This document shows positions 4,214 to 27,455 of a DNA stretch of 27,455 bases, piece by piece. The DNA lies in NCBI GenBank assembly GCA_031409275.1, contig JANNXA010000023.1, forward strand, positions 1 to 27,455, given 5' to 3'. Position numbers and translations under genes: made by a program. A model generated the notes under the pieces. It was not told where the DNA came from and ran no database searches. It worked only from the letters and a program-made list of their open reading frames with translations. Source of the DNA: Planctomycetota bacterium (lineage in GTDB: Bacteria; Planctomycetota; B15-G4; SIAN01). The first letter of the stretch is position 1; each line of letters opens with the position of its first letter.

Positions 4214-6468
4214 GAGTTCTCCTGCTGGCGATTGGACTCGAAGGAGCGGGCCAAAGCGCACGCGGTGCGGTTGCTGATCGGGAACGCCAAGGCGGCGGCC
4301 CACAAGCGCGCGGTTGTTGGTGAGGCAGAAGCGGCGCGGATCGGCGGGCAAAGACCCGCGGGCCGCATGCGGCGAAGGGCGATCTCGACGGCGGCCGTGG
4401 CATCTCCTGATCGCAAGCGTCGGACGATTGCTTGGTCTGCAGGGATGTCGCGACCACGTTCGAGCGGCCACGGCAGGCATGCCAATCGCAGAGCGATCCA
4501 AGGCTCGGCGGGCCATGAACCTGCAGGTGCCGTTGCCGAAATGGGCGGCGTCGACCCCCGCCAATTCACCGCCATGAAGGCGTGAGCGAGCCCCGAGACG
4601 CGGTTCAGGTCCACGTCGCCCTCGACCAACGCGGCGAGGTCTGCGGGCTCGGCTCCGCATCCAGACGCTGCCACCAGCGGGAGGCGCCGCTGACCGCTCC
4701 GTGCGGCTTCGATCAAGCGTCGCTCGACGAGCGAAGAGAAGTCGGCGACCGGGTCTCGCCCGCTCATGACGACGCGCGGATCGCGGAACAGTCGCTTGTC
4801 CTGTTCGTGATAGCGACGCGCTCCAGGCTTCAGGGGGAGCCAGTGGTGTCGGATCGGATCAAGCGGTCGGCCGCGCCGGTCGTACTCCGCCGCCGCGCTG
4901 CCAAGCGCGCGAGCGAGTCGCCACTCGACGCTGCCGTCGTCCGACACGAGGACCCATTCGGGCTGCAGCCGCGGGATCGGACCTGCCCTGATGGCGGTTC
5001 CGCCCACTTGGATGGCCTCGATCGCTGCGGCGGACAGCAGCACGCTTTGCCAGCGTTCAGCAGTGTCGTCGTGCGTGAGCAGCGCGAAGACGGCGTTGGC
5101 AAGCTGCCGTTCGGCGTGGATCAACCGTGCCGGCGCATTCTTGTCGCGTGCGGCACGCTGGAGCCGGTCAAGCCAGGGCGAGAGATCGTCGATCAGGCGA
5201 GCACGCGGGCGCTCGACCACGTCGACGCGTCCAAGCGGAACGGCGAGCTGGGCTTGACCATTCCTTTCCAGGAAGCCGAATCGCGTGAATCCTCGGACGC
5301 CGCGCGCGGCTCCCAGCCGACTCACGGCGCGAACGACATCGACCGGTCGCTGCGCAGCATCCCGTCCAAGCTGCATGCGTGCTTCTCCGAGCATGGCCTC
5401 GAAGTCGCTTGCGGTGCTCGGTCGGGTCCAGAGGGGCATCCACTGCTCGCCTCGATCCGACTTCTCGGCGCCCGTGCTCCCGTGACCTACGGCATGCGCG
5501 CGGACCGAGAAGGGGGCGCTGGCACGGCTCGAAGCCCTGGGGTCGAGGCGCCGTGTTGAGCGGGCGCTGAACATCACGGCGCCTTCGATCATCAAGACGA
5601 AGTCCCAGGGATTGATGAAGCTGTCGCCGCCGGGACCGGTCGTGCTGTTCGCGCCACCGGCACTCCCCGGCAGGAACTGTCCGACGGCCCCCGCGACGAC
5701 GCCGCGGGTCACCGTGCGCCAAAGAGCGTCGGCGAGCAACCCGGATGCAACTGGACGTGGCCCACCGTCGGATGCGACGAAGAAGAGGTCATCGAGCCGT
5801 TGCATCGCATTGTTGGTGAAATCGACTCGGCCATCGTTGCCCCCAGTGCCGAGCAGAGCCGGGAAGGACGGTTTTCCCTCTTCCGGCAGGACGAGGGCGG
5901 CGTCCATCCATGCACGATGGGGCCCACGCCAGGCGAGTTCGCATGGCCTGAACAGGTCGGCCTTGAGGGATGCGAAGCACTCGTTTGCGGCCGCAAGGTC
6001 CGCCTTGTAGCCGGCATCGTTCTTCAAGGCCGCTGCCGCACGCTTCTGCTCGTCCGTCATCCCCTTCTTGGTCTTGGTGCGATCCTTCAACGCGCGCACC
6101 GCCGCGTCGGCAGCGGCGAGTTCCTTGAGCGGCGCTCGCGCGGACTTGATGCCGCGACGAAGCGCTGCGAACCGCGCTGCGGTCGACTTCTCGAGAGGTG
6201 TCAGTCCAGGGTCGTTCGGCGAGAAGAACCCCGAACCCTTGTTCCATGGCGACACGAACGGGGTCGGCGCGTACTCCTCGAGGAAGAAGCGATCGAGCGC
6301 TCGTCGATCCAGCGCTGTCAGCAAACAGAAGTGCTGGTCCTGCCACCACCCGCGGACGGTCGGATCCTTCTGCTCGGCGACCAGGCGCAGGATGCCCAGC
6401 GCCTTGAGGTAGTGGGCAAGCGGCACCGGGGAGCAGCCCCGAAGCTCGTGCATGTGCAAGGCGGTCAT
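4210..6468 (-). CDS. csx17: Type I-G large subunit Cas8g1 (Csx17)
   Basis: Motifs LRGCSPVPLAHYLKALGILRLVAEQKDP, PTPFVSPWNKGSGF, LLGTGGNDGRVDFTNN, NPWDFVLMIEGA and RFGFLERNGQA. Confidence 0.92.
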   Translation of the reverse strand: MTALHMHELRGCSPVPLAHYLKALGILRLVAEQKDPTVRGWWQDQHFCLLTALDRRALDRFFLEEYAPTPFVSPWNKGSGFFSPNDPGLTPLEKSTAARFAALRRGIKSARAPLKELAAADAAVRALKDRTKTKKGMTDEQKRAAAALKNDAGYKADLAAANECFASLKADLFRPCELAWRGPHRAWMDAALVLPEEGKPSFPALLGTGGNDGRVDFTNNAMQRLDDLFFVASDGGPRPVASGLLADALWRTVTRGVVAGAVGQFLPGSAGGANSTTGPGGDSFINPWDFVLMIEGAVMFSARSTRRLDPRASSRASAPFSVRAHAVGHGSTGAEKSDRGEQWMPLWTRPSTASDFEAMLGEARMQLGRDAAQRPVDVVRAVSRLGAARGVRGFTRFGFLERNGQAQLAVPLGRVDVVERPRARLIDDLSPWLDRLQRAARDKNAPARLIHAERQLANAVFALLTHDDTAERWQSVLLSAAAIEAIQVGGTAIRAGPIPRLQPEWVLVSDDGSVEWRLARALGSAAAEYDRRGRPLDPIRHHWLPLKPGARRYHEQDKRLFRDPRVVMSGRDPVADFSSLVERRLIEAARSGQRRLPLVAASGCGAEPADLAALVEGDVDLNRVSGLAHAFMAVNWRGSTPPISATAPAGSWPAEPWIALRLACLPWPLERGRDIPADQAIVRRLRSGDATAAVEIALRRMRPAGLCPPIRAASASPTTARLWAAALAFPISNRTACALARSFESNRQQENS

Positions 6469-7625
6469 GGCGGCTCCTTCTCAGGAGCGGCGCGCTGGTC
6501 GAGGAGTGCGCGGTCTGTCTCGACGAGGTGTTGCAGAGCCTCTACCGAAGGCAGCGCGACCTGGTAGCGAGAGACGAACAACTGGTGGTCGAGTCCGGCC
6601 GTCGCGTAGTGGACCTTGGTCTCGTCCTTGTCGCTGCACAGGATCAGTCCCACGGGCGGCTGGTCGCTGGCGCCGAGCATGTGGTCTTTCCACCACTGCA
6701 AATAAAAGTTCATCTGGCCGGCATCGCCGTGCGTGAACGAGCGCACCTTCAAGTCGATGAGCAGGTGGCAGCGCAGGACACGGTGATAGAAGACGAGGTC
6801 GATCCAGTCGTGCTCGTTGCCGACCGAGATTCGTTTCTGCCGTGCCTCGAAGCAGAAGCCGGTCCCGAGTTCGAGCAGGAACGCCTGCAGGTGATCGAGG
6901 AGAGCAGCCGCGAGATCGCTCTCGCGATACTGGGCGCGCTCCGCGAGGCCGGTGAACTCCAGCACGTACGGATCGCGGAGCTGGCTGGCGACCATCGGCT
7001 GTTCCGCCGCCGATCCGGTCCGCGCCGCGGCGATCACGGCCTGCTTGTCGATCGACAGGCCGGTGCGCTCGTAGAGCGACGAGCCGATCTGCCGGCGGAG
7101 TTCGCGCAGCGACCAGGACGCGCCCAACGTCTCGTTTTCGTAGAAGGCGCGCTTCCAAGGGTCGTCGAGGCGGAGCAGCTCGACGACATGCGACCAGGTG
7201 AACCGGAAGACCGCCTCGGCAGGGAGCGGGGGCACCAGTCGCTCCGAGGATTTCCGCGACACCGTCGCGGAAATCTCCCCGGAGGCCGCGATCCGCCGCA
7301 ATTCCGGCGATGGCGGGAACTGCGGCAGTGACTGCGCGGTGATCACCGGGCCCACCTGCGGATACGTCCGGTAGAAACCGCGCATTCGCTCGAGGACGTC
7401 GGGGCTCGTCCCGCGTAACCCGGAGGTCTCCAGATCTGCGGACAGGCGCTTCAGCAACCCGGACCCGTAGGTCGCACGATCTGCACCGCGCTGCTCGAAC
7501 TCGACGATCCATCCGCCGATCAACCAATTCCGCACCAGCAGCGCTCGATGCACGGCTGCCACGGCGCTGCCCAAGGTCTGGCCGTGCAGGGTGGTGATGG
7601 TTGCGACGAGGTCGATGTAGTTCAC
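6465..7625 (-). CDS. DUF1016 / YhcG-family PD-(D/E)XK nuclease embedded in the cas operon
   Basis: Motifs NWLIGGWIVEFEQRGADRATYG, TWSHVVELL, WSLRELRRQIGSSLYER, RDPYVLEF, FLLELGTGFCFEARQKRI, IDLVFYHRVLRCHLLIDLK, GQMNFY and PVGLILC. Confidence 0.92.
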   Translation of the reverse strand: MNYIDLVATITTLHGQTLGSAVAAVHRALLVRNWLIGGWIVEFEQRGADRATYGSGLLKRLSADLETSGLRGTSPDVLERMRGFYRTYPQVGPVITAQSLPQFPPSPELRRIAASGEISATVSRKSSERLVPPLPAEAVFRFTWSHVVELLRLDDPWKRAFYENETLGASWSLRELRRQIGSSLYERTGLSIDKQAVIAAARTGSAAEQPMVASQLRDPYVLEFTGLAERAQYRESDLAAALLDHLQAFLLELGTGFCFEARQKRISVGNEHDWIDLVFYHRVLRCHLLIDLKVRSFTHGDAGQMNFYLQWWKDHMLGASDQPPVGLILCSDKDETKVHYATAGLDHQLFVSRYQVALPSVEALQHLVETDRALLDQRAAPEKEPP

Positions 7626-10348
7626 GGTTGTTCTGGCCCGACTAGGGGCAACAACGGGTCGGTGGTGGAAAGCTGCGATGCTCGGCGATCCGCGGCGATC
7701 AGTATCGCTTCGAGCCAGGCCAGTGCGCCTGGGCCGAAGCGTTCGACGAGGCCGAGCGTGCGTTCGCGCCAGCTGCGCCCGGTCAGTGGTGAGAGTCCGA
7801 GATTGGCCGGCTCGAGCGAAAGCGTCAGCGCCGGAAGCGGCGCAGACGACGCCTCCATGTCGAGCGATACGGTGGGCAGCTCATCGCCTTCGCGCACGCC
7901 GCGGATCGGCAGGCCGCGGCCATCACCTCGGTCGCGGTAGTCCTGGTCCTTCGGCGCGGCATGGAGCGCAACGCGAACCTTGCCATGGTGCGAGGCGACG
8001 AGGTAGGCGAGCAGATCGAACTCGTCCGCCGAGCAGTCGAGCACGGCTTGTTCGTGGCGTGTCGGTGTTCTTGCCAACGGAACATCGGGTGCCGGACAGC
8101 CCATCAGCGCCAACGCCTCGACCCACGGCCCGAGCAGCGCCGGGTGTCGCGGCTGATTCAGCCGCAGCACCGCGAAGAGCGCCAGCGTGCTCGCGAGCTC
8201 GTGGCGCAGGCCCGGCCGCAGATCCCGATCGTCGATGGTGCGATAAGACTTGGGCGGCCGCGGCCACGCAGCGGTGGGCGCCTTCGCCAGATCCTGGCGA
8301 TCCGGCCGATCCGACGAGCGGATCGCTCCCTGGAACGCCGGGTGCGCCTTGCCGAGGTCATGCCAGCGACCGGCGAGCGTCAGCAACTCGCGCAACCTCG
8401 GCGGCAGCCCGATGGTCGTCGCGATGGCCGCCGCCGCATCCGCGACCTCCGCGCCGTGGCATGCGATCGTCTTCCACGGTGACGCGCTCAGCTCGTCGCT
8501 GTCCGGGCTCTCGCCTGCCTGGAGAGCCGCTTCCGTCATGGAAGGGAGCTCGGCCATCGGCACGACCGGAACGACATCCTGCGAGTGCGGGTCGAATCCA
8601 CGCGCGATGGCGTAGCCGCCCGCATCGTTCGCGACGCACACCACGCGGCCGGGGGTGAGGTGATGCCGCTCGGCGACAACCCAGGTGCCGTCGAGCCAAT
8701 CCCATACCCAGGCTCGGATGCCAGGACGCAGCCTGGGCTTCGGCTTGCTCTTGCTCTCCTCGCCGCAGAGCCAGTCGCGCGCACGCAGGAAGGGCACCGC
8801 GCAGAGTTCTTCGCGCCGCGGAAGCCGGCGCTGCCCGGGAACGTGTCGCACACCCTTCCGGTCCCGGGCGATCTCGAGCCAGAAGACCTGGAGGTCGCGT
8901 TCATCTCCGTTGCGGATGAAGCGGCTGATGTCGAGGTCAGCCCCCGTGAGGTCGGGGGTGGTGTCAAACAGCTCATCGAACTCGCGGCGCAGCAGCAGGT
9001 GTCGCGGCGCATAGGGATAGAGGCGTCGACGCTCGGAATCGTCGAGCCCCTCCTCGAACGCCTCGAGCGCTGCGATGCCGACGTTGCCTTGCGCCATCAG
9101 GTTCTCGACGGTGCTCCAAGCCGCTTCGAGCTCGTCCGGGCGATAGGGGAGCGCCGCTGTTTCGTCGCGGCCGCGATCGACGACCACTACATGCCCCGCG
9201 CCTCCGTAACGGGCGCATCGTCCGAAGCGTTGCACGAGGCTCGGCCACGGGGCGAGTTCGCTGACCACGCGACCGGCCGAAATATCGACGCCGGCCTCGA
9301 CCACCTGCGTGGCCACGATGATGCGGTCGACTTCCGGCTTGCACGCCGAGCGGCTGAGGAAGCGCTCGCGCCATGCGATGCGCTCTGCAGGGCGGAACCG
9401 GCTATGCACCAGCTCGATCCCGCCCGTTCGACCCCGTGCTCGCAGCGCGTCGAAAGTGCTGCAAGCCCGGGCGACGGTATTGCAGATCACCAACGTGATG
9501 CGGCCCCACTCGCCGTCGGGAGTCGCCGCATGCTCGTCGAGGATGCGCTGAGCGAAGGTGCGATGGCCTTCGTCGCCGTTGCCGGGGATGCGCGCGTGCG
9601 CCAAGGACTTCCGGATCGAGCCGACCCCTCGGTCCCGATCGGGGCGTGCGACGACGGTCGGATTGCGGCGCCACTCGTCGTGGCGTGACGCAGTGTCGAC
9701 GCTCTTCAGCCATGCGTCTTGGAGCGTTGCGCTCATCCACCAGGTGTGACGCGGTCGCATCCCTTTGGTTGCGTCCGCATCGTGGTACGCCTGCAACTGT
9801 GCGCTGGTCGCGAGGCCGACATCCATCAATTGGGCTTCGTCCATGACCCAGAGCGCGTCATGGCTGAGCAGTCCGAACTCGAGCGGCCAGCGAGCTCGAC
9901 CGCTGGCGTAGCCGCGGTTCAGTGCGCGAGAGAGCAACATGTCCTGCGTGCCGATCAGGACGGCCGGCTCCTCGGGAGACAAGCTCCATTCGCCGCCTGG
10001 ATCGGCGCCGCCCATCAACAGATGCAGACCGACCTTTCCTGCGTGCGAACCCGACCCGTTCCAGAGCGTCCCGAGCGATTCCAAAGCACGGCGCGCCACA
10101 TCTTCGGTCTGCTCTGCGAGCACGCGCATTGGCAAGCACCAGACGAGGCGCCGCGGCCATTGCTCATCGGCGCGACAAAGGCGATGCCAGCTCCAAGCGG
10201 CCAACACGCCAAGGGTTTTCCCCATGCCGGTCGGAACGCGTACGAGCCTGCTGCGTGGGGCGGCTTCACTTGCAAGCGCTTCTTGCCACGCATGCGGCGC
10301 CAATGAGTCGCCGGCGAGCTGTCTGAACCAATCGCGGTAACCGGGCAT
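7622..10348 (-). CDS. cas3: Type I-G Cas3 helicase-nuclease with C-terminal HD domain
   Basis: Walker A VPTGMGKT, IGTQDMLLSRALNRGY, DEAQ box, SAT motif, ATQVVEAGVDIS and QRFGRCAR, followed by the HD domain (TIACH..HDLGKAHPAFQ, RHELAS, SHHGKVR, AADRRAS). Start re-assigned to ATG 10348, with RBS GAAGGGGG. 908 aa. Confidence 0.95.
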   Translation of the reverse strand: MPGYRDWFRQLAGDSLAPHAWQEALASEAAPRSRLVRVPTGMGKTLGVLAAWSWHRLCRADEQWPRRLVWCLPMRVLAEQTEDVARRALESLGTLWNGSGSHAGKVGLHLLMGGADPGGEWSLSPEEPAVLIGTQDMLLSRALNRGYASGRARWPLEFGLLSHDALWVMDEAQLMDVGLATSAQLQAYHDADATKGMRPRHTWWMSATLQDAWLKSVDTASRHDEWRRNPTVVARPDRDRGVGSIRKSLAHARIPGNGDEGHRTFAQRILDEHAATPDGEWGRITLVICNTVARACSTFDALRARGRTGGIELVHSRFRPAERIAWRERFLSRSACKPEVDRIIVATQVVEAGVDISAGRVVSELAPWPSLVQRFGRCARYGGAGHVVVVDRGRDETAALPYRPDELEAAWSTVENLMAQGNVGIAALEAFEEGLDDSERRRLYPYAPRHLLLRREFDELFDTTPDLTGADLDISRFIRNGDERDLQVFWLEIARDRKGVRHVPGQRRLPRREELCAVPFLRARDWLCGEESKSKPKPRLRPGIRAWVWDWLDGTWVVAERHHLTPGRVVCVANDAGGYAIARGFDPHSQDVVPVVPMAELPSMTEAALQAGESPDSDELSASPWKTIACHGAEVADAAAAIATTIGLPPRLRELLTLAGRWHDLGKAHPAFQGAIRSSDRPDRQDLAKAPTAAWPRPPKSYRTIDDRDLRPGLRHELASTLALFAVLRLNQPRHPALLGPWVEALALMGCPAPDVPLARTPTRHEQAVLDCSADEFDLLAYLVASHHGKVRVALHAAPKDQDYRDRGDGRGLPIRGVREGDELPTVSLDMEASSAPLPALTLSLEPANLGLSPLTGRSWRERTLGLVERFGPGALAWLEAILIAADRRASQLSTTDPLLPLVGPEQP

Positions 10349-10473
10349 CGGTCCCCCTTCGCGGCCGCAGATTGGAGCGAAGGGAGCACGTATCGCGCAA
10401 GGGAGTTCTGTGAACGCCAACACGGTCGAGTTTGATTCGACGACTTGCCGAAGAACGCTTCGGGGTACTGACC
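10349..10473. promoter_or_regulatory. Divergent control region between cas3 and cas4/cas1
   Basis: 125-bp gap between head-to-head starts. It contains the inverted repeats cccttcgc/gcgaaggg (10355-10384) and ccgaag/cttcgg (10448-10463). No -35/-10 boxes could be called. Confidence 0.5.
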
Positions 10474-12195
10474 ATGAACACGAACGGCGAGTCTCCGTCC
10501 GCTGCCCAAGAACTCCTTCCCGTCCGCATGCTGAACGAGTTCGCGTACTGCCCGCGGCTCTTCCACTTCGAACGGGTGGACGGGCTGTTCGCTGACAGCG
10601 CCGACACGGTCGAGGGGCGCTCCGTCCATCGGCGGGTGGACGCCGTTGAGGACGTCCTGCCTGAGCCAGACGGGGAGGCGCAGCCCGAGGTGGCGCGCTC
10701 GGTCCAGCTCGGGAGCGAGCGCCTCGGGCTGATCGCCAAGATCGACCTCGTCGAGGTCGATGGGGACGTGGCGGTGCCGATCGACACGAAGAAGGGGCGC
10801 GTGCCCGACATCCCCGAGCAGGCCTACGAGCCGGAACGGGTCCAGGTCTGCGCGCAGGGGTTGCTGCTGCGCGAGCATGGCTACCGCTGCGACCACGGCT
10901 TCCTCTACTTCGCGGGGTCGCGGCGCCGAGTCCGCGTCGAGCTGACGCCGGAACTCGAGGCGCGGACGCGCGAGCTTGCAGCGGCGGCGCGAGCGGCCGC
11001 ATTGCTCACGGCTCCACCGCCTCCCTTGATCGACAGCCCGAAGTGCCCGCGCTGTTCGCTCGTCGGCATCTGTCTGCCGGACGAAACGAACTTTCTGCGC
11101 GAGCGCGAGTCGGTCGAGCAGCCACCGGACTCTGCTGCGACCGCGACGACATCTCGCGAGCCGCGTCGCCTCATCCCGTCGCGCGACGACGCGCAGCCCG
11201 TCTACGTGCAGGGGCAGGGCTACTCCGTCACTCGATCGGGCGACGTCCTCGTCATCACGGACAAGGGCAAGAAGCTCCGCGAAGTCCTCGTGAAGGACAT
11301 CTCGCATCTGGCGATCTTCGGCAACAACCAGGTCACGACGCAGTTGCTGCAGACGTTGTGCGGTGCCGAGGTGCCGGTGACCTGGTTCTCGCACGGAGGC
11401 TGGTTCTACGGGATGCTCCAAGGCTTCGGACTGCGCAACGCCTTCGTTCGCCGCGAGCAGTTCAGGAAGGCCGACGACCCCCTGTTCTGCGTCCAGCTCG
11501 CTCGCGAGTTCGTGGCGGGGAAGATCAGCAACTGCCGGACGCTGCTGCAGCGCAACCACTCTGCGCCGCCCGAGGACGCCTTGCGCGACCTGAAGGAAGC
11601 AGTCGCGACCGCTCGCGAGGCGACGACGCTGGAGACGCTGCTGGGGATCGAGGGCAATGCGGCGCGGATCTACTTCGGATCGTTCCAGGCGATGCTGAAG
11701 CCGAAGGGCGCCGAAGCTGCGCCGGCCTTCGACTTCAACGGCCGCAACCGCCGCCCGCCGCGCGATCCCGTCAATGCGATGCTGTCGTTCGTCTACAGCC
11801 TGCTGTCGAAGGACTTCACCATCGCCTGCATGGCGGTCGGACTCGATCCCTACCTCGGCTTCTATCACCAGCCGCGCCACGGCCGACCCGCGCTCGCGCT
11901 CGACCTGATGGAGGAGTTCCGGCCGCTCGTCGGCGACTCCGTCGTCCTCACGCTCGTCAACAACGGCGAGGTGGTCGCCGACGACTTCGTGGTGACCGAA
12001 GCTGGTTGCGCGATGACGCCGGCAGCCCGCTCGAAGTTGATCGGCGCGTATGAGCGTCGCCTCGACTCGCTCGTGACGCACCCGGTCTTCGACTATCGCG
12101 CGAGCTACCGACGCATCTTCGAGATCCAGGCGCGCCTGCTGACGCGGGTGCTTCAGGGCGAGGTGCGCTCCTACCCGTCCTTCACGACCCGGTGA
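10474..12195 (+). CDS. cas1: Cas4-Cas1 fusion
   Basis: Cas4 part: MLNEFAYCPR, KIDLVE..IDTKKG, QVCAQGLLL and KCPRCSLVGICLPDE. Cas1 part: LLGIEGNAARIYF, RRPPRDPVNAMLSFVY and LALDLMEEFRP. Likely start is ATG 10474. Confidence 0.96.
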   Translation: MNTNGESPSAAQELLPVRMLNEFAYCPRLFHFERVDGLFADSADTVEGRSVHRRVDAVEDVLPEPDGEAQPEVARSVQLGSERLGLIAKIDLVEVDGDVAVPIDTKKGRVPDIPEQAYEPERVQVCAQGLLLREHGYRCDHGFLYFAGSRRRVRVELTPELEARTRELAAAARAAALLTAPPPPLIDSPKCPRCSLVGICLPDETNFLRERESVEQPPDSAATATTSREPRRLIPSRDDAQPVYVQGQGYSVTRSGDVLVITDKGKKLREVLVKDISHLAIFGNNQVTTQLLQTLCGAEVPVTWFSHGGWFYGMLQGFGLRNAFVRREQFRKADDPLFCVQLAREFVAGKISNCRTLLQRNHSAPPEDALRDLKEAVATAREATTLETLLGIEGNAARIYFGSFQAMLKPKGAEAAPAFDFNGRNRRPPRDPVNAMLSFVYSLLSKDFTIACMAVGLDPYLGFYHQPRHGRPALALDLMEEFRPLVGDSVVLTLVNNGEVVADDFVVTEAGCAMTPAARSKLIGAYERRLDSLVTHPVFDYRASYRRIFEIQARLLTRVLQGEVRSYPSFTTR

Positions 12196-17082: not shown

Positions 17083-18570
17083 ATGCAGTACGGCTTCGTG
17101 ATCGATCACCGGCGCTGCATCGGGTGCCACGCCTGCACGGTCGCGTGCAAGGCGGAGAACGACGTCCCGCTCGGCAACTTCCGGACGTGGGTCAAGTACG
17201 TCGAGAAGGGGACCTTCCCCGAGGTGAAGCGCCACTTCGCGGTGCTGCGCTGCAACCACTGCACCGATGCGCCGTGCGTGACGATCTGCCCGGTGAACGC
17301 GCTCGACAAGCGCAAGGACGGCATCGTCGATCTCGATCGCGACGTCTGCATCGGTTGCCGCGCCTGCATGCAGGCTTGCCCCTACGACGCGCTCGCGCTG
17401 AACGAAGCGACCGGCGCGGTCGAGAAATGCCACTACTGCGCCCATCGAGTGGAGAAGGGGCTGCAACCGGCCTGTGTCATCGTCTGCCCCGAGCAGGCGA
17501 TCATCAGCGGCGACTTCCACGATCCGGCCAGCAAGCCGAGTCGCCTGATGGCGGAGCAGCCGTCGATCCGCCGCCGCACCGAGCAGAACACCGGTCCCAA
17601 CGTCGCCTACATCGGAGTCGAGCCGCTGGCGCTCGAGCCGGGCGCGATCGAGCGCCCCGCCACCTACCTCTGGAGCGAGCGGCCGCCGCAAAAGCCGGAG
17701 ATGTGGCCGCTCACGCTCCCGCTGGTCCCGAACGCGCGCGTCACGCTGGACGCGGGCCACAAGGTCGAGTGGGGCGGTGGAGTCGCGGCCTACCTCGTGA
17801 CCAAGGGGATCGCGGCCGGCGCGGCGATGCTCGCACCGTTCGTCGCGGCGCTGGGGTTGACCGGCTTCGCCGCCGATTGGCTCCCGGAGATCGCAGCGCT
17901 CTTCTTCGTGACGCTCACCACCTTCCTGCTGGTCGAGGATCTCAAGCGCCCCAAGCTCTTCCTCACGCTGCTGACGCGTGGCAATCGCAAGAGCTGGCTC
18001 GTGAAGGGGGCGTGGATCCTGATCGCCTTCTCGATCACGGTCAGCGCGACGCTGGCCGCGCGCTTCTTTCGCATCGATGCGGCGATCGCGCCGCTGCGCT
18101 GGGTGAACGCCGTGCTGGCGCTCGGCGTCGCCGGCTACACCGCATTCCTCTTCGCGCAGTGCGAGGGGCGCGACCTGTGGCAGGGGAAGCTCCTGCTGCC
18201 GCATCTGCTCGCGCAGGCGCTCTTCTGCGGCGCGGCGCTCTTCCTGCCGTTTGCGGCGGCAGCGCGCGAGGGGCTGCAGGCCGTCCTCGCCATCGGCGTC
18301 GCGGTGCACCTGCTCTGCTGCCTTGCCGAGCGCTGGATGAAGCACGCGACGGCGAATGCGCGCCAGGCCGCGGCATTCCTCGATGTGGTGAAGTTCGCCG
18401 GAAAGATCCCCGCGTTCCGCTTCGGAATGGTGGTGGTCGGCGCGCTGCTGCTGCCGCTCAGCAACGGCCCGGCCGCGATGCTCTTCGTCGTCCCGCTCCT
18501 GGCGTGGTGGGGGCTCTTCCTGTGGGAATGGGCCTACGTGCGAGCGGGGCAGCTGCCGCCGTTGTCGTGA
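17083..18570 (+). CDS. 4Fe-4S dicluster (NrfC/PsrB-like) protein fused to an NrfD/PsrC-like membrane anchor
   Basis: Cys motifs CIGCHACTVAC, CNHCTDAPC, CIGCRACMQAC and CHYC..PACVIVC, followed by about 8 hydrophobic helices with LVEDLKRP..SWLVKGAWIL. Confidence 0.9.
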   Translation: MQYGFVIDHRRCIGCHACTVACKAENDVPLGNFRTWVKYVEKGTFPEVKRHFAVLRCNHCTDAPCVTICPVNALDKRKDGIVDLDRDVCIGCRACMQACPYDALALNEATGAVEKCHYCAHRVEKGLQPACVIVCPEQAIISGDFHDPASKPSRLMAEQPSIRRRTEQNTGPNVAYIGVEPLALEPGAIERPATYLWSERPPQKPEMWPLTLPLVPNARVTLDAGHKVEWGGGVAAYLVTKGIAAGAAMLAPFVAALGLTGFAADWLPEIAALFFVTLTTFLLVEDLKRPKLFLTLLTRGNRKSWLVKGAWILIAFSITVSATLAARFFRIDAAIAPLRWVNAVLALGVAGYTAFLFAQCEGRDLWQGKLLLPHLLAQALFCGAALFLPFAAAAREGLQAVLAIGVAVHLLCCLAERWMKHATANARQAAAFLDVVKFAGKIPAFRFGMVVVGALLLPLSNGPAAMLFVVPLLAWWGLFLWEWAYVRAGQLPPLS

Positions 18571-18657: not shown

Positions 18658-18702
18658 GGGTGGCCGCAGCCGGTCGAACGCAGCCGACATTCTGTTAGGC
18701 GC
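18658..18702. repeat. Right-end fragment of the MITE-like repeat found at 27318-27455
   Basis: gggtggccgcagccggtcgaacgcagc (18658-18684) is identical to 27427-27453. cattctgttaggcgc (18688-18702) is the exact reverse complement of 27318-27332. Confidence 0.8.
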
Positions 18703-18704
18703 GC

Positions 18705-20369
18705 TCAGTAGTCCCAGCCGAGCCGCAGCTGCAGTCCCTGCGTCATCGAGAGGCCGCCGGCGGCGCCAGGATCGAGCTCCACGACCTGCAGGAAGAAGTC
18801 GGAGAAGCCGAGCGCGGGGTCGTCGGGGAGATCCTCGCTGGCGCTGAAGCCGGCTGCCGGGATCGTGACGGGCAGCACGATCAGCGGCAGCACCAGCAGC
18901 GTCCCGCCCTTCTTGAGCGGGATCGTGGCGGTGGCATCTCCGATCAGCACCCAGCCGGTGGTCGTGGCGCCGCGCGAGTTGTTGGCGGTGAAGGTCAACG
19001 TGGCGCCGAGCTCGGGATCGCCGCTGACGGCGAGCGTCGGCGTGCCGAGCGTGCCGGGGAAGCCCGCGCCGTAGCTCGACTGCGAAGCGGGGCAGCCGAG
19101 GACGGCATGGACGATGCCTCGATTGCTGCCGGTCGCGCCGTACCACGCACTCGCCGGGATCAGCAGGTCGCCGATGCCGTCGCCGTTCCAGTCACCGGTG
19201 GCGAGGCTCCAGCCGAATCGCAGGTCGTGCGAGTCGGTCACGTCCTGGCCGTCGAACCGGTGCAGCTCGATGCCCGTCGCGCCAGAGAAGACGTGGACCG
19301 AGCCGAAGGGGGCCGCGGCGATCGCGGTGGCGAATTGCTCGGCGATGCCGTCACCGTCCCAGTCGCCGCCCGCGCCAAGGAAGTTCCCGAGCTGCTCCCC
19401 GGTGGCGCCGTACGTCGTGCGCAGGATGGCCAGCGTCGCACCACTGCGCAGCTCGACCCGGCCGTCATGCGTGCCCGAGCGGACGCCGGCGCCGATCAGG
19501 AAGTCCTCGACGCCGTCCTGGTCGACATCGTCCGTTCCGACGAGAGCTTCGCCGAGCCCGTCGTCGACACCGACGCCGCTGAGGGTCCGGATCCACGCGC
19601 CATCGGCGCCGGAGAAGATGCGGACGTAGCCTTCGTACTTCGCGGTGATCCAGCCGAAGGCATACCCGATCGCGAAGTCGCGTCGACCATCGCCGTCGAC
19701 GTCGCCGATCCGCGCCATCGAGCTGATGAACTGGTTGGGCGTGTTGAGCGTCGTCAGGTACGCCCCGGTCGCGCCGCTCAAGACGTCGACATCGTCTGTG
19801 CCGGTGAGGTAGGCGGCCAGCAGATCGGCGCGGCCATCGCCATCGAGGTCATCGATCGCGCAGAGTTCGCGGCCGAAGTAGTCGAAGCCATCGAGCCCGT
19901 CGGACGCCCAGAGCAGCTGTCCGGTTGCGCCACTGTAGGCCTCGACGCGGCCGGCGGCCGAGTTGGACCCGGCGTCGTGAAAGGGCGCCGACGCCGCGTA
20001 GTCGGGGATCGTGTCGCCATCGACATCGCCGAGCGCAACCACATGGTCGCCGAGGAAATCGAAGTTGGCTCCGCCGACATGGGTGCGGATCAGCGTCCCG
20101 GTTGCGCCGCTGATGACGTGGATCTGTCCCACGTCGATCCCGGTCGCCGTGTCCGCAGACGGTTCGCCGACGATCCAGTCGTCGCATTGGTCGCCGTCGA
20201 TGTCGCCGATCATCACGACCGCCGCGCCGAGCTCCGCCCCGTCTTGTGTCCCTTCCAGGCGCAGCTGTTCGACCTGGGCACGAGCCGTGGTCGCGACCGC
20301 CAGGACGGCGCACCACGCCGCCGCGGTCGCCCCGAAGACGCGTTTCGTTTTCGCCACCCGTTGCCGCAT
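18705..20369 (-). CDS. Secreted FG-GAP (integrin alpha beta-propeller-like) repeat protein
   Basis: Repeated GDxDGDGxxDxxxG and xxFSGATG motifs, and a signal peptide ending ARA-Q. Start re-assigned to ATG 20369, with RBS AGAGGAG. Confidence 0.9.
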   Translation of the reverse strand: MRQRVAKTKRVFGATAAAWCAVLAVATTARAQVEQLRLEGTQDGAELGAAVVMIGDIDGDQCDDWIVGEPSADTATGIDVGQIHVISGATGTLIRTHVGGANFDFLGDHVVALGDVDGDTIPDYAASAPFHDAGSNSAAGRVEAYSGATGQLLWASDGLDGFDYFGRELCAIDDLDGDGRADLLAAYLTGTDDVDVLSGATGAYLTTLNTPNQFISSMARIGDVDGDGRRDFAIGYAFGWITAKYEGYVRIFSGADGAWIRTLSGVGVDDGLGEALVGTDDVDQDGVEDFLIGAGVRSGTHDGRVELRSGATLAILRTTYGATGEQLGNFLGAGGDWDGDGIAEQFATAIAAAPFGSVHVFSGATGIELHRFDGQDVTDSHDLRFGWSLATGDWNGDGIGDLLIPASAWYGATGSNRGIVHAVLGCPASQSSYGAGFPGTLGTPTLAVSGDPELGATLTFTANNSRGATTTGWVLIGDATATIPLKKGGTLLVLPLIVLPVTIPAAGFSASEDLPDDPALGFSDFFLQVVELDPGAAGGLSMTQGLQLRLGWDY

Positions 20370-20566
20370 GGTTCGCACTCCTCTGGTCGCTTGCGGGCGA
20401 TGCCGTCGCCGCGCGTTGGACCGGTTGGTGTCGTGCCGCGGCGCTCCAGTCAAGCGGGGCGGGAACGGGGGCGCCGTGCGGCGCGGCGCCGCCGCCGGAA
20501 GCCGCGGCCAGCGACCGGCGGGCCGACTCTCGCCGCAGGGTCGGCGACCCGCTACGGTGCCGCACC

Positions 20567-23350
20567 ATGCGCAGCCACGATCCCGAAGAGATGACGGTCA
20601 CGCCGCTCGAGAACTTCCCGCCGCTCGACCAGTGGGATGACTGGGTCGAGTACGAGTCGAAGAGCTGGCCGAAGAAGGTCGAGAAGCACTACATGCTGCT
20701 TCCGACCATCTGCTTCAACTGCGAGGCGGCGTGCGGTCTGGTGGCGTACGTCGACAAGCAGGATCTGTCGATCCGCAAGCTCGAAGGCAATCCGTATCAC
20801 CCCGGCTCGCGCGGCCGCAACTGCGCGAAGGGGCCGGCGACGCTGAACCAGGTCGAGGACCCGGGCCGGATCCTCTATCCGATGAAGCGGGTCGGGCCGC
20901 GCGGCGGCGGCAAGTTCGAGCGCACGACGTGGGACGAGGTGCTCGACGTCTTCGCCAAGAAGATCCGCGCGGCGCTCGTCGAAGGGCGCAAGACCGAAGT
21001 GATGTACCACGTCGGCCGACCCGGACACGACGGCTACATGGATCGCGTGCTGCAGGCGTGGGGCGTCGACGGCCACAACAGCCACACCAACGTCTGCAGC
21101 GCGGCCGCGCGGCTCGGCTACGCGCTGTGGCAGGGCGTCGATCGACCCTCGCCCGACCACGCCAACGCGAAGTTCATCCTGCTCTTGTCGAGCCACCTGG
21201 AGACGGGCCACTACTTCAACCCGCACGCGCAGCGGATCATCGACGGGAAGATGGCGGGCGCGAAGCTGTGCGCCATCGACATCCGCCTGTCGAACACGGC
21301 CTCGATGGCCGACTACTGGATGGCGCCGAATCCCGGCAGCGAGGCGTTCCTGCTGCTCGCCTTCGCGCACGTGATCCTCGAAGAGGGGCTGATCGATCGG
21401 AAGTTCGTCGACGAGTGGACCAACTGGCCCGAGTACATGGCGGCGCTGGCGCCCGACGCGCCGGCGACCTTCGAGCAGTTCCTGGTCGAGTTGAAGCGCC
21501 ACTACGCGCAATACACCCCCGACGCGGCGGCGAAGGAGTGTGGCGTCGCGAAGGAGCAGATCGTCGCCGTCGCGCGCGAGATCGGGAAGGCGGGCCACGG
21601 CTTCGCGAGCCACGTCTGGCGCAACGCGGCGTCGGGCAACCGCGGCGGCTGGCAGGTCGCGCGCTGCCTCCATTTCCTGTCGGTGCTGGTCGGTGCGGTG
21701 GGTTCCGAAGGCGGCACCAACTTGAACACCGCCGACAAGTTCGTGCCGGCGCCGTTCGCCAAGCCACCGCCGCAGAAAGTGTGGAACGAGCTGCTCTACC
21801 CGCGCGAGTGGCCGCTCTCCCACCACGAGCTCTCCTACCTGCTGCCGCATCTGCTGAAGGACGGCCGCGGCAAGCTCGCCGCCTACTTCACGCGCGTCTA
21901 CAACCCGGTCTGGACCAACCCCGACGGGATGATGTGGGAGCAGGTGCTGCGCGACGAGAAGCTGGTCGAGTTGCACGCCGCGCTGACGCCGACCTGGAGC
22001 GAGACGGCGCAGTACGCCGACTACGTGCTGCCGATGGGGCTCGGTGCCGAGCGCCACGACCTGATGTCGCAGGAGACGCACGCTGGCCGCTGGATCGGCT
22101 TCCGGCAGCCGGTTCGCCGCGCCGCGATGGCGAAGCTCGGCAAGAAGGTCGAGTGGACCTGGCAGGCCAACCCCGGCGAGGTGTGGGAAGAGGACGAGTT
22201 CTGGATCGCGCTGTCATGGCGCATCGATCCCGACGGGTCGCTCGGCGTGCGGCAGTGGTTCGAGTCGCCCTACCGCAAGGGCGAGCGGATCACCATCGAC
22301 GAGTACTACGGCTGGATCTTCGAGAACACCGTGCCGGGGCTGCCCGAGGCGGCGAAGGCGATGGGCCTCACGCCGCTCGAGTACATGCGCAAGTTCGGGG
22401 CGTTCGAGATCAAGGGCAGCACCTACGACACCTTCAAGAAGCCGCTCGCGGAGAAGGAGCGGGCCGGCACGAGCGACGATGCTGCGAAGCGCATCGTGGT
22501 GAAAGACGGCAAGGCGGTCGGCGTGCTGGCCGAGGGGGCGGCGCGCGTCGGGCTCGCCACACCCAGCCGCCGTTTCGAGCTCTACAGCAAGACGATGGCC
22601 GATTGGGGCTGGCCCGAGCAGGCGCTGCCCGGCTACCTCGAGAGCCACGTGCACCCGAAGCACCTCGATCCGGCGCACGGCGACTACGTCCTGGTGCCGA
22701 CCTTCCGCCTGCCCACGCTGATCCACACGCGCAGCGCGAACGCGAAGTGGCTTTACGAACTGTCGAACACCAACCCGGTCTGGATCCACCCGACCGATGC
22801 GAAGCGGCTCGGCCTCGAGACGCTCGACCTCGTGCGCGTCGCGACGCGCATCGGCCACTTCATCAACAAGACCTGGGTGACCGAGGGGGTGCGGCCCGGT
22901 GTCATCGCCTGCAGCCACCATCTCGGCCGTTGGCGACTGTTCGACGAGGGCGGCACCGATCGCTGGGCCAGCGCGCTGGTGAAGCGCGAAGAGCTCTCGC
23001 CCGGCCGCTTCCGCTTCCGTCGCGTGAAGGGCATCGCGCCGTGGAAGTCGAGCGACAAGGACAGCTCGCGCGTCTGGTGGACCGACGGCGGCGTGCACCA
23101 GAACCTCACCTTCCCGGTGCAGCCCGACCCGATCAGCGGCATGCATTGCTGGCACCAGCGCGTCCACGTCGAGAAGGCGCGCGCCGGCGATGCCTACGGC
23201 GACGTCGAAGTCGACACCGTGAAGTCGATGGAGGTCTTCCGCGAGTGGATGGCGCTCGCCCGCCCCGGACCGGGACCTGACCACCTGCGGCGACCGCTCT
23301 GGTTCAACCGCGCGGTGAAGCCGGCGCCGGAGGCGTACAAGTTCCCGTGA
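20567..23350 (+). CDS. Mo-bisPGD (DMSO reductase family) oxidoreductase catalytic subunit, no Tat signal
   Basis: 4Fe-4S motif CFNCEAACG..GSRGRNCAKG, RILYPMKR, probable Mo ligand segment HNSHTNVCS, SETAQYADYVLP, and a C-terminal dinucleotide-binding domain (WIHPTDA, TEGVRPG). Start is ATG 20567 or ATG 20591. Confidence 0.92.
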   Translation: MRSHDPEEMTVTPLENFPPLDQWDDWVEYESKSWPKKVEKHYMLLPTICFNCEAACGLVAYVDKQDLSIRKLEGNPYHPGSRGRNCAKGPATLNQVEDPGRILYPMKRVGPRGGGKFERTTWDEVLDVFAKKIRAALVEGRKTEVMYHVGRPGHDGYMDRVLQAWGVDGHNSHTNVCSAAARLGYALWQGVDRPSPDHANAKFILLLSSHLETGHYFNPHAQRIIDGKMAGAKLCAIDIRLSNTASMADYWMAPNPGSEAFLLLAFAHVILEEGLIDRKFVDEWTNWPEYMAALAPDAPATFEQFLVELKRHYAQYTPDAAAKECGVAKEQIVAVAREIGKAGHGFASHVWRNAASGNRGGWQVARCLHFLSVLVGAVGSEGGTNLNTADKFVPAPFAKPPPQKVWNELLYPREWPLSHHELSYLLPHLLKDGRGKLAAYFTRVYNPVWTNPDGMMWEQVLRDEKLVELHAALTPTWSETAQYADYVLPMGLGAERHDLMSQETHAGRWIGFRQPVRRAAMAKLGKKVEWTWQANPGEVWEEDEFWIALSWRIDPDGSLGVRQWFESPYRKGERITIDEYYGWIFENTVPGLPEAAKAMGLTPLEYMRKFGAFEIKGSTYDTFKKPLAEKERAGTSDDAAKRIVVKDGKAVGVLAEGAARVGLATPSRRFELYSKTMADWGWPEQALPGYLESHVHPKHLDPAHGDYVLVPTFRLPTLIHTRSANAKWLYELSNTNPVWIHPTDAKRLGLETLDLVRVATRIGHFINKTWVTEGVRPGVIACSHHLGRWRLFDEGGTDRWASALVKREELSPGRFRFRRVKGIAPWKSSDKDSSRVWWTDGGVHQNLTFPVQPDPISGMHCWHQRVHVEKARAGDAYGDVEVDTVKSMEVFREWMALARPGPGPDHLRRPLWFNRAVKPAPEAYKFP

Positions 23351-24915: not shown

Positions 24916-26145
24916 TCACTGTTCCTTCGCGAGCCCAGCCTCCAGCATCCGCTGGTACTTCCGTGTCCACTCGTCGGGGTCGAAGCTCTTGAACAGCTCT
25001 TCGACGGCGAGCTGCGCGATGACCTTGCCTTCCGCAGTCACCACCATCGAATCGACCGGGTAGGTGTAGGCGGCGAGGATCGCTCGCGCGACGACGCGCG
25101 CCTCATCGGTGGCAAAGGCCGCGTCGATGGCGGCGCGCGAGACGAACTGCGGCCGCACGATCCAGGCGTTGACGAACTCCTCGTTCAGCTGCTCGATCAC
25201 TTCCAGGTTCGAGAGCGGACCCGCTCTCAGCGTCTTGCCCGAGCCTCAGCAACTCTCGTCATCGAGCGTGCCGAACAGCGCCACCACGTGCAGCGGCTTG
25301 CCGCTCTGCGTCGCCTCTTCCACCGCCGCCTCGAAGGGCAGCCAGTCGACTTTGGCGAAGTCGTAGAAGCAGCGCGCCAACAGCGTCGCCGCGCGTTCCT
25401 CGTCGATCTGCGCGTTCCACGGCTCGCGGGTCACGATCTGCGCGAGCGTGTCGGTGTGGTCGTTCGCGGCGCCGGTGAGTCCGAGTCGCGGCACGTAGCC
25501 GATGTCCGCCTCGACCATCGCAGGCTTGCCGTCGCCACTCGGCTGCGCCCAGTTGAGGTCGACATTGCTGTCGCGCGCTGGAACGCCGAGTTCAAGCGCC
25601 AGCGGCCGGTTGCTGACGCGCTCGAAGACGATGCGTCCCGCGAGCTGCGCTGGCGTGTACCACGAGCCGATGTCATCGAGCGGGAAGTCGGCATGGAGGC
25701 GCACCTGCACGACGTCGAGCTGTTCGTTGCGTGCCACGAGCAGCGCGAAGCCACCGTCCGTTTGACACGCCAGGTGCATCTCGAGCTGCGCGGTCGCGTG
25801 GAGCTGGCGCACGATCGGCAGGACACGCTCAGGATCGAGCCGCCAGCTCGTTCCGACGGTCGCCGTCGCGGGCGGCGCGAAACCGGAGAGCTCCGCGTCG
25901 CTCCACGTGTGCTGCCGCTCCGCGGGCGCCAGCGTGGCCAGCCGCGGCCAGCGCTGCTGGAAGCCGTAGGCTGAACGCGCGATCGGCTCCCAGACGGCCG
26001 TCACGACGAGTCCGTCGCCCTTCGCGGTCGCTGCGGTGGCGATCTCACCGGGAGTCCACGCGATGACTCCGACGCCCATCAGCCACGCGCTGTAGCGGAA
26101 TCGCTTGGCGAACGAAGTTGCTTTTGTGGTGGCAGTCATCGGCAC
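24916..26145 (-). CDS. Selenoprotein N (SELENON)-like selenoprotein; in-frame TGA at 25246-25248 read as Sec
   Basis: ORFs 25246-26145 and 24916-25200 are in the same frame. Readthrough gives KPLHVVALFGTLDDESC-U-GSGKTLRAGPLSNLEVIEQLNEEFVNAW..YTYPVD, matching the eukaryotic SelN signature ..GALDDQSCUGSGRTLR... A SECIS-like hairpin follows the TGA. About 409 aa, with an alternative ATG start at 26139. Confidence 0.88.
25211..25228 (-). promoter_or_regulatory. Bacterial SECIS-like hairpin of the SelN-like gene
   Basis: mRNA sense GAGAGCG-GGUC-CGCUCUC: a perfect 7-bp stem with a GGUC loop, 24 nt between the UGA and the loop. Confidence 0.8.
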
Positions 26146-26379
26146 TCTCGTGGCTCGTGAATCGCCCGGGCTTGTGAAGTTGGAGGACCACCGATACGCG
26201 GCAGCGCGGTCGTCGTGAGACGCAAAATCGCTCCGCCATGTTCCCGCGGTGGCTTGGCCGGGGGGATCCGCGTGATCCTCGAAATCGCTGCGGCGCCTCG
26301 CTGGCTCCTGCCGGGATAGGCTCGGAGCACGGACGCCGCCGGTCGGTGTCGCGATCGATCAAGTCTGGAGTCCTGCGCC

Positions 26380-27315
26380 ATGAGAGCATTCATCGTGATC
26401 CCGGCACTGTCGCTGCTCCTCTCCGGCGCGGCACCGCCACAAGACGAGGTGGAGCTGCGATTCAGCGACTGCGACGCGCAGCGGCCCGCACTGTTGACGG
26501 GCGTCGGCGATCTCGTCGAGATCATGCTCCGTGGCCCGCCCGTCGATCCGCTCGTGCTGCGTGCGACGATGAAGGTCGAGGAGCGCGAGGTCGCGATCTA
26601 CCTGCCCAAGGCGCCGCTCTACTCGCGCGAGAACCGTGGCAGCGACTCGACCGGAATGGAGAACAGCAGCACGCTCCTCTCGATCGACGACGACGGGGAT
26701 GGCGTGCTGACCGAGCGCGAGTCGTGGCACGCGAACCTGCCGCTGCGGATCGGCGACACGATGTTCGACGTCGTCGAGCTGGCGGCCGATGGTCGTCGCA
26801 TGGTGGTGCGCCGTTCGACGGAGCCGCTCTCGGGCATCGTCGTCGGCCGTCGCGTCCCGCCGTTCGAGCTGCGGACCGCGTCGGGCCAGACCTTCAGCGA
26901 CGCTTCGCTGGCGGGCAAACCCTTCGTGCTCGACCTCTGGTCCGTGACCTGACACAACTGCATCGAAGAGTTCCCCCTGGTTCAGGGGGTTCAACGCAAA
27001 TGGGGCGAGCGACTCCTTCCGGTGATCCTGGTCGCCGTCGACCGCGGCTTTGGCAGCAAGGATGCGGAGTTCGTGCCGCAGGCAGCGCGCATCCTCGAAG
27101 CCCACGGTGTCGCATGGCCGAACACAATCGCCGAAAACGGTTTCGAGACGACCAAGCGCCGGTTCAACCTCGACGGCTACACGAAGGTGCTCGTCGATCC
27201 GCACGGCATCGTCCGGGCGGTGGGCATGCACGGCACCGAGCTGGCCGAGAAGGTCGAGGCCGTGATGCGGGAGTGGGCGAACGAGCGGCGGGGCAAGCAC
27301 GATGGAGCCGAGTAA
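26380..27315 (+). CDS. Exported TlpA/ResA-like thioredoxin-fold selenoprotein (UxxC); in-frame TGA at 26950-26952 read as Sec
   Basis: ORFs 26380-26952 and 27022-27315 are in the same frame. Readthrough gives VGRRVPPFELRTASGQTFSDASLAGKPFVLDLWSVT-U-HNCIEEFPLV..ILVAVD..TKVLVDPHGIVR, so U occupies the first Cys of the TlpA WxxxCxxC motif. N-terminal signal peptide. 311 aa. Confidence 0.88.
26973..26989 (+). promoter_or_regulatory. Bacterial SECIS-like hairpin of the TlpA-like gene
   Basis: CCCCCUG-GUU-CAGGGGG: a perfect 7-bp stem with a loop starting GU, 27 nt between the UGA and the loop. Confidence 0.75.
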
Positions 27316-27317
27316 GA

Positions 27318-27455
27318 GCGCCTAACAGAATGGACGCGTCGCGCCGAGACCGAGCGAGGCCGCCCAGGGCGAGGAGACCGAAGCAGGCGACTCTGAAGAG
27401 TCGCCGATGGAGGTCGACGAAGTCATGGGTGGCCGCAGCCGGTCGAACGCAGCGG
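27318..27455. mobile_element. MITE/REP-like repeat element, cut by the window edge
   Basis: Begins with gcgcctaacagaatg just after the upstream stop codon, contains the hairpin ggcgactc-tgaa-gagtcgcc (27386-27405), and shares a 27-bp identical block with 18658-18684. Confidence 0.7.

Follow-up and report, generated by a model that had tools for sequence, protein, structure and literature searches.

A probable TlpA-like selenoprotein from Planctomycetota whose family lacks the thioredoxin cis-proline

The stretch of DNA considered in this work (hereafter the window) comprises 27,455 nucleotides of a Planctomycetota contig, and the gene of interest, P0001, occupies positions 26380–27315 of its forward strand, as assigned from the sequence and from homologues. 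The reading frame extends from an ATG at 26380 to a TAA at 27313–27315 and comprises 311 codons, corresponding to a protein of 311 amino acids when UGA is read as selenocysteine (Sec), with a Shine-Dalgarno-like GGAG located 9 nt 5' of the ATG (26367–26370, forward strand). Its single in-frame TGA, at 26950–26952, corresponds to residue 191 (U191) in the context DLWSVT-U-HNC and is followed by 120 sense codons, which bears out the original prediction that the TGA falls at the nucleophile of a thioredoxin motif, in a frame that then stays open. The database entry for this gene consists of the 190-aa truncated product (P0003) only. The P0001 stop codon also marks the start of a repeated element (27311–27455, at least 145 bp), which leaves the contig end; blastn gives 30 rows for it in the genome, the self-hit among them, with several at contig ends, a 27-bp piece of it is also present at 18658–18684, and it is possibly a MITE or REP-like element.

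Elsewhere in the window, the reverse strand carries CRISPR-Cas genes (3182–11002), including Cas3 (7622–11002) and a GSU0053-family gene (3182–4660), with a YhcG/DUF1016 nuclease gene (6465–7625) sitting between these two. The forward strand carries a 4Fe-4S/NrfD fusion (17083–18570) and a molybdopterin oxidoreductase, the latter as the 3' part of 20246–23350, separated by an FG-GAP repeat gene on the opposite strand (18705–20453). The divergent neighbour of P0001, P0002 (24916–26139, reverse strand), is itself a 407-aa candidate selenoprotein, with a TGA at 25246–25248 in the motif DDESC-U-GSGK and a stem-loop past the UGA. Among its 32 matches, self included, 23 end at ESC and nine have SCCG, and searches against Pfam, NCBIfam and the PDB returned zero matches. 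Of the two genes, P0002 is perhaps the more novel, and its sequence presumably bears a likeness to SELENON. The available part of PMC12839072 gives SCUG as the SELENON motif, and the part of the PMC13188914 table that was available shows nothing resembling SELENON. A functional link between P0001 and P0002 was considered and rejected, a P0002 homologue being found in no family locus but that of the window.

The host genome (92.9% complete) encodes selA, selB and selD as well as a tRNA-Sec with a TCA anticodon (selC), and its selD gene itself contains a TGA. Homologues of P0001 could be read as DNA at 18 distinct loci, comprising L007, seven metagenome loci, four loci from a phylum search (401 genomes, five of which matched, including the host) and six from a GTDB pattern scan (nine loci, three of them repeating earlier ones). 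The Sec column is TGA in 18/18 of these loci, and the GTDB pattern, although permitting any TGN, gave TGA in nine cases out of nine; since this pattern demanded His, Cys and Phe-Pro, the six loci it contributed are not independent evidence for those residues. The half downstream of the TGA, for which the original prediction had considered pseudogene-like decay, is complete in 17 of the 18 loci and open to the contig end in the remaining one. Sec machinery was found in all ten other carrier genomes tested (selB in 4/4, selA in 6/6). Finally, a different sample from this study (run X4) yielded a contig that spans 26783–27041 with zero differences, TGA included, and because the homologous loci also carry the TGA without exception, an assembly error at this codon is ruled out.

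These data also bear on the alternative in which the TGA acts as a genuine stop or arose by nonsense mutation, leaving either a pseudogene or two separate genes. Six of six close database homologues end at this codon, at DLWS[IV]T, and gene calls treat some of the downstream halves as proteins in their own right (P0157, P0165, P0169). The concern that homologues might simply stop here thus holds for the database proteins, but not at the level of DNA, where the codon is always TGA in homologues as divergent as 27–47% identical where aligned, and where the downstream halves are intact. As every DNA-readable homologue has both a TGA and an intact second half, we attribute the DLWS[IV]T endings to gene calling. 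Together with a covarying SECIS element, Cys homologues and the Sec machinery of the carriers, these comparative data refute the stop-codon explanation, to which we assign a negligible likelihood.

The collection of Cys homologues suggested in the original prediction yielded seven CxxC forms among nine full-length non-Sec members of the family, in which a Cys is aligned with the in-frame UGA. The U191-H-N-C194 motif of P0001 (26950–26961, forward strand) has a direct counterpart in the CHNC of P0060, while P0071 and P0079 have CHAC. Similarly, the suggested bacterial SECIS search, using the centroid fold and covariation, located a hairpin at 26973–26989 on the forward strand (CCCCCUG / GUU loop / CAGGGGG), with 7 bp, its GUU loop 27 nt past the UGA and a centroid energy of -12.7 kcal/mol, which satisfies the bSECIS constraints as set out in section 5 of PMC13188914. 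Across 19 sequences, pairing is maintained in 94.0% of cells, compared to 82.3% upon shuffling, with 0/500 shuffles as high, and slid-position controls give 27–64%. Compensatory changes on both sides are seen in four of the seven pairs, although kinship inflates such counts. Two pairs are telling despite this kinship, because in each a synonymous third base tracks an amino acid change on the opposite arm: one couples Pro CCT/CCC to Arg AGG/Gly GGG (10 U-A, 9 C-G), and in the other, Phe TTC/TTT varies with the first position of the sixth codon downstream (15 C-G, 4 U-A). By itself, the hairpin region has no unusual stability relative to shuffles (z -0.31 and 0.08). Its 11-nt core recurs at an equal offset behind the UGA of host selD, and of 98,864 genomic TGA triplets only these two (P0001 and selD) have the core at that offset, where ~0.1 would be expected from its 11 occurrences; this match was spotted before counting and the comparison is post hoc. 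Taking the conserved TGA, the covarying SECIS, the Cys homologues and the Sec machinery into account, the selenoprotein reading is upheld, and we consider it close to certain that P0001 encodes a selenoprotein, its in-frame UGA likely being read as Sec.

Past its N-terminal region, the read-through product contains a ResA/TlpA-type thioredoxin-fold domain (approximately residues 153–303; 26836–27288, forward strand), as found by Pfam, AlphaFold2 (AF2) and Foldseek, in agreement with the TlpA-like fold that had been proposed. In the Pfam search called for in the original prediction, AhpC-TSA (PF00578) scores 28.7 bits, over its cut-off of 26, and it is likewise matched by all nine members scanned. 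The AF2 model of the whole protein has a pLDDT of 89.5, with U191 at the beginning of the active-site helix, and Foldseek ranks ResA and related thiol-disulfide oxidoreductases highest (TM 0.78–0.85 by target length, ~19% identity); the PDB sequence search concurs, with ResA-type matches first. The NCBIfam cut-offs, where given, are reached by no scanned member, with P0001 scoring 32.2 bits against 230 for NF047696, 30.6 against 170 for NF002854, 15.4 against 123 for TIGR00385 and 18.1 against 300 for NF041054.

The late strand of this domain reads FNLDGYTKVLVD in P0001 and is devoid of Pro, and by comparison with TlpA domains the loop F262–D273 (27163–27198, forward strand) both lacks the cis-Pro and is one residue shorter. 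When the cis-Pro position is taken as six residues before the strand-end Asp (leaving out L033, where the contig ends), Pro occurs in 0/27 family members versus 66/71 ordinary WxxWCxxC TlpA domains from the same search, such that the absence proposed for the one protein extends to the family as a whole. The position is instead occupied by Tyr (22 members), Phe (four) or Trp (one), and the upstream aromatic/Leu anchor lies one residue closer in 27/27 members, which shortens the loop. The host genome (G000) also has six thioredoxin-like U-G-P-C candidates (C7:86341, C7:112758, C9:117722, C9:150784, C43:53376 and C47:5887), four of which are close paralogues with WG[FY]W-U-GPC, and all six have Pro in the late loop. 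Setting a host UGPC loop against that of P0001 (WNVSGWPTIYIVD against FNLDGY-TKVLVD) displays the likely event, although the sequence fits both a clean Pro deletion and a replacement with a nearby deletion, and cannot tell the two apart. In the parts of PMC2757866 and PMC2665069 available to us, the cis-Pro is said to be more conserved than CxxC across thioredoxin-fold groups and to form part of the polypeptide-binding site, and for these reasons its loss speaks against an ordinary exchange of disulfides with proteins. As the original prediction suggested, the chemistry or the substrate may be non-canonical.

At the active site, His follows Sec in all 19 Sec-type sequences, 13 of which were found without demanding His, while the next residue is V in seven, N in six, S in five and A in one; thus, of the His-Asn dipeptide singled out as unusual in the original prediction, the His is conserved and the Asn is not. 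The resolving Cys is retained in 19/19 Sec-type sequences, and 64 of the 69 truncated members have Thr just ahead of Sec. A fixed His next to Sec in a Pro-less loop raises the alternative that U-H-x-C is a metal site, for Cu or an Fe-S cluster, in an envelope metal chaperone or sensor, in which case DsbD would merely keep the Se, His and Cys ligands reduced. The cis-Pro is reported to exclude metals (Su et al. 2007, as cited in parts of PMC2757866 and PMC2665069), which its absence from all 27 members would fit, and three of nine members give weak SCO1-SenC matches (best E 0.0014, below cut-off where scores are given). However, ordinary TlpA proteins (P0205, P0101) give weak SCO1-SenC rows too, His is retained in just three of the nine full-length non-Sec members, and ResA/TlpA proteins come out on top structurally, with a Sco chain absent among the Foldseek matches listed. 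The spacing here is moreover UxxC, and not the CxxxC that is the Sco motif, and on balance a metal site appears unlikely to us.

Loss of the cis-Pro could also be understood if the protein were a small-molecule reductase, acting on a peroxide, sulfenic acid, polysulfide or halogenated substrate, and had given up this residue, as in peroxiredoxins, once protein disulfides were no longer handled. The Thr that precedes Sec takes the place of the WCxxC Trp and gives S/A-x-T-U, which we take to resemble the deiodinase motif, and one member weakly matches NF038285 deiodinase_rel (E 0.0095). Peroxiredoxins do replace the cis-Pro, as described in part of PMC2757866, but their Arg is never found among the aromatic residues at this position of the family, the PxxxTxxU motif is absent, and the resolving Cys is kept in every Sec-type sequence. 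Furthermore, the first peroxiredoxin-like chain is found near the bottom of the PDB sequence matches (2ywn, E 0.00076), and we regard an activity of this kind as improbable.

Turning to the N-terminal half, P0001 begins with a likely signal peptide (approximately residues 1–18; 26380–26433, forward strand), judged from hydrophobicity, the best 11-residue Kyte-Doolittle window reaching 2.78. By this hydrophobicity measure alone, an N-terminal hydrophobic stretch is present in 61/69 family members and in 0/61 internal control segments, and P0001 is probably exported. It is followed by a mostly beta domain (approximately residues 22–150; 26443–26829, forward strand), for which AF2 gives a pLDDT of 95.4 when it is folded alone. 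Searches with these residues gave zero Pfam or NCBIfam matches at E<=0.1, and Foldseek against the PDB and BFVD gave 0 matches at E<=0.001, so that the proposed unrecognised domain, of about 130 residues, is indeed matchless in Pfam, NCBIfam and the PDB. It carries a conserved DxDxDG...E loop (D103–E114, DDDGDGVLTERE; 26686–26721, forward strand), which we take to be a Ca2+-binding motif and which is thus a predicted Ca2+ site; D107 and E114 are invariant across 18 rows, and the strict pattern is found in 50/65 members.

When 1.84 billion representatives were searched with a profile, 150 matches were listed, 89 of which score >=25 bits on the N-domain HMM. As judged from protein ends, 69 of these 89 are truncated just before the Sec column (64 by pattern and five by eye), with the caveats that some duplicate the DNA loci and that P0159 looks chimeric. 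The nine full-length non-Sec members comprise the seven CxxC forms, one CxxT and one without Cys, and the other 11 are fragments or more distant TlpA proteins. The family is mostly databased as half-proteins, presumably because gene callers cut at the UGA. The CxxT form (P0095, with CEPT) and the Cys-less form (P0102) have a degenerate site with both domains retained, and are possibly non-redox. Among nine named GTDB records with the gene, seven are from Planctomycetota and two from Melainabacteria, and the Melainabacteria genomes (L045, L052) hold selA as well as the family selenoprotein gene. G156, from the host phylum, has a gene identical to that of L046, which is labelled Planctomycetota, in line with the host being a planctomycete. 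In a tree of 34 rows, the 27 Pro-less rows split from seven TlpA proteins with the same N-terminal module on a branch with support of 100/98, and the Cys forms require two changes and are nested among Sec forms (midpoint root, truncated proteins left out), which suggests that Sec may be ancestral. No description of a UHxC, Pro-less subfamily with a DxDxDG domain was found in the literature searched, which lay mostly outside subscription journals, and the P0001 family appears to be a previously unannotated selenoprotein subfamily of the known UxxC class.

A possible source of reducing equivalents is indicated by a DsbD-alpha-like segment with C-x4-C-[LV]PP in 16 proteins, being N-terminal in 13/69 truncated members and P0060, and C-terminal in P0018 and P0022. 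Pfam DsbD_N is over cut-off in P0022 and below it in five of the eight other long members scanned (18.6–23.9 bits), gives no row for P0060, P0121, P0112, P0156, P0018 or P0019, and the homologous tail of P0019 is without the Cys pair. As the segment occurs at either terminus, the electron-donor domain of DsbD appears to have been recruited more than once. P0001 itself is unfused, as are most family members. The host has a DsbD (TM domain 94.3 bits) with two alpha-like repeats judged by eye, a PF11412 search of its genome giving zero matches, and the gamma domain of this protein reads FTGFT-U-INC, with a TGA at 106504–106506 of contig C51 (L054, L056); from its sequence, host DsbD therefore appears to be a selenoprotein as well. 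Across 30 DsbD-gamma-like loci, 16 have TGA, 13 have Cys and one has no motif, and the cis-Pro is replaced by Ser in 4/29, all within the genus of the host, apparently a second, independent cis-Pro loss in a Sec thioredoxin domain. We considered and rejected a matched co-loss of the cis-Pro in the two families, on the grounds that a search with P0001 as query found no family member in three relatives from the genus whose DsbD-gamma is Pro-less, and that a Cys DsbD-gamma with Pro occurs in the carrier G006 (L074). A conserved operon was likewise rejected: an all-against-all comparison over 19 loci found no conserved gene neighbour, with sharing only between pairs of loci, mostly close kin.

Electron transfer from DsbD/ScsB to TlpA is established in Caulobacter, according to the part of PMC3322552 available, and it is from this scheme that we infer the catalytic steps that follow. 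The reading toward which we lean, with modest conviction, is that P0001 acts in the envelope as a disulfide reductase that receives its electrons from DsbD and has a dedicated substrate. SelB would read the hairpin, Sec191 would be inserted and the protein would be exported, after which Sec191 would attack a substrate disulfide or oxidised cysteine, with Cys194 resolving. The Se-S bond would then be re-reduced by a DsbD alpha-type domain, which some members carry as a fusion and which membrane DsbD would provide in the host. With the generic docking loop around the cis-Pro lost and a domain bearing the Ca2+ loop added, substrate choice would probably have shifted to this N-terminal domain and one specific target. 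Points against a DsbD-fed reductase include the loss of the cis-Pro, the lack of an alpha fusion in P0001 and most other members, the absence across 19 loci of a conserved neighbour that would point to a substrate, and the partial or complete loss of the redox motif in P0095 and P0102. A bolder proposal, which we put forward tentatively and find rather doubtful, is that a hidden clade has repurposed the disulfide site through loss of the cis-Pro and a fixed His, either to bind a metal by Se, His and Cys or to reduce small molecules, with regulation by way of a Ca2+-binding domain whose fold is unsolved and with a selenoprotein DsbD as the source of power.

Work on the role of the cis-Pro, whether in docking and releasing substrates or in keeping metals out, has relied mainly on mutants. 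A Pro-less clade that has kept UxxC or CxxC would constitute a natural experiment on this residue, with natural controls in the Cys members, which can be expressed without Sec machinery and among which P0060 has its putative reductant domain fused to it, and in relatives with the same N-terminal domain and a retained Pro. As this near-universal residue is lost family-wide, the protein likely serves a dedicated partner. A further outcome is a selenoprotein subfamily that had gone unannotated, represented in databases by 69 truncated proteins and seen in records of Planctomycetota and Melainabacteria, together with an N-terminal domain for which Foldseek found no solved relative in the PDB.

In comparison with known systems, the available parts of PMC13188914 (2026) list 119 prokaryotic selenoprotein families, among them UxxC families of PF00578, PF08534 and cd02966, with UxxC PF00578 selenoproteins (Prx-like thiol:disulfide oxidoreductase) already in its Table 1. 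Since this class is catalogued, and the host itself has six U-G-P-C candidates, Sec itself is not the novelty here. P0001 shares with the catalogued class the Pfam domain over cut-off, UxxC at the helix start and a downstream bSECIS, whereas, compared by description and not by sequences, it differs in its U-H-x-C and the Thr before Sec, and its family differs in the lost cis-Pro, the DxDxDG N-terminal domain and the DsbD-alpha fusions.

Other thioredoxin-fold proteins also lack the conserved Pro. Sco proteins depart from the cis-Pro rule, and the P0001 family is unlike them in that CxxxC is absent and the SCO1-SenC scores given fall below cut-off. Peroxiredoxins depart from it too (PMC2757866, in part), and are characterised by PxxxTxxC/U and an Arg at the cis-Pro position (parts of PMC13188914 and PMC2757866), features that are both absent from the P0001 family. 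ResA/TlpA/DsbE (CcmG) proteins provide the top sequence and structure matches and share the link to a DsbD-type domain and, as judged from hydrophobicity, likely export; P0001 differs from them in that Sec replaces the nucleophilic Cys, the WCxxC Trp is absent, the identity is ~19%, the loop is one residue shorter and an aromatic residue stands at the Pro position, and cytochrome c maturation genes are not conserved as neighbours of the family (19 loci). As the cis-Pro is missing, we propose that P0001 works like TlpA/ResA proteins and do not class it as a canonical one. TlpA proteins such as P0144, P0205 and P0189 have the same DxDxDG N-terminal module and domain order as the Pro-less family and, unlike it, keep WCxxC-type motifs and, in the six (of seven) for which the loop was displayed, the cis-Pro.
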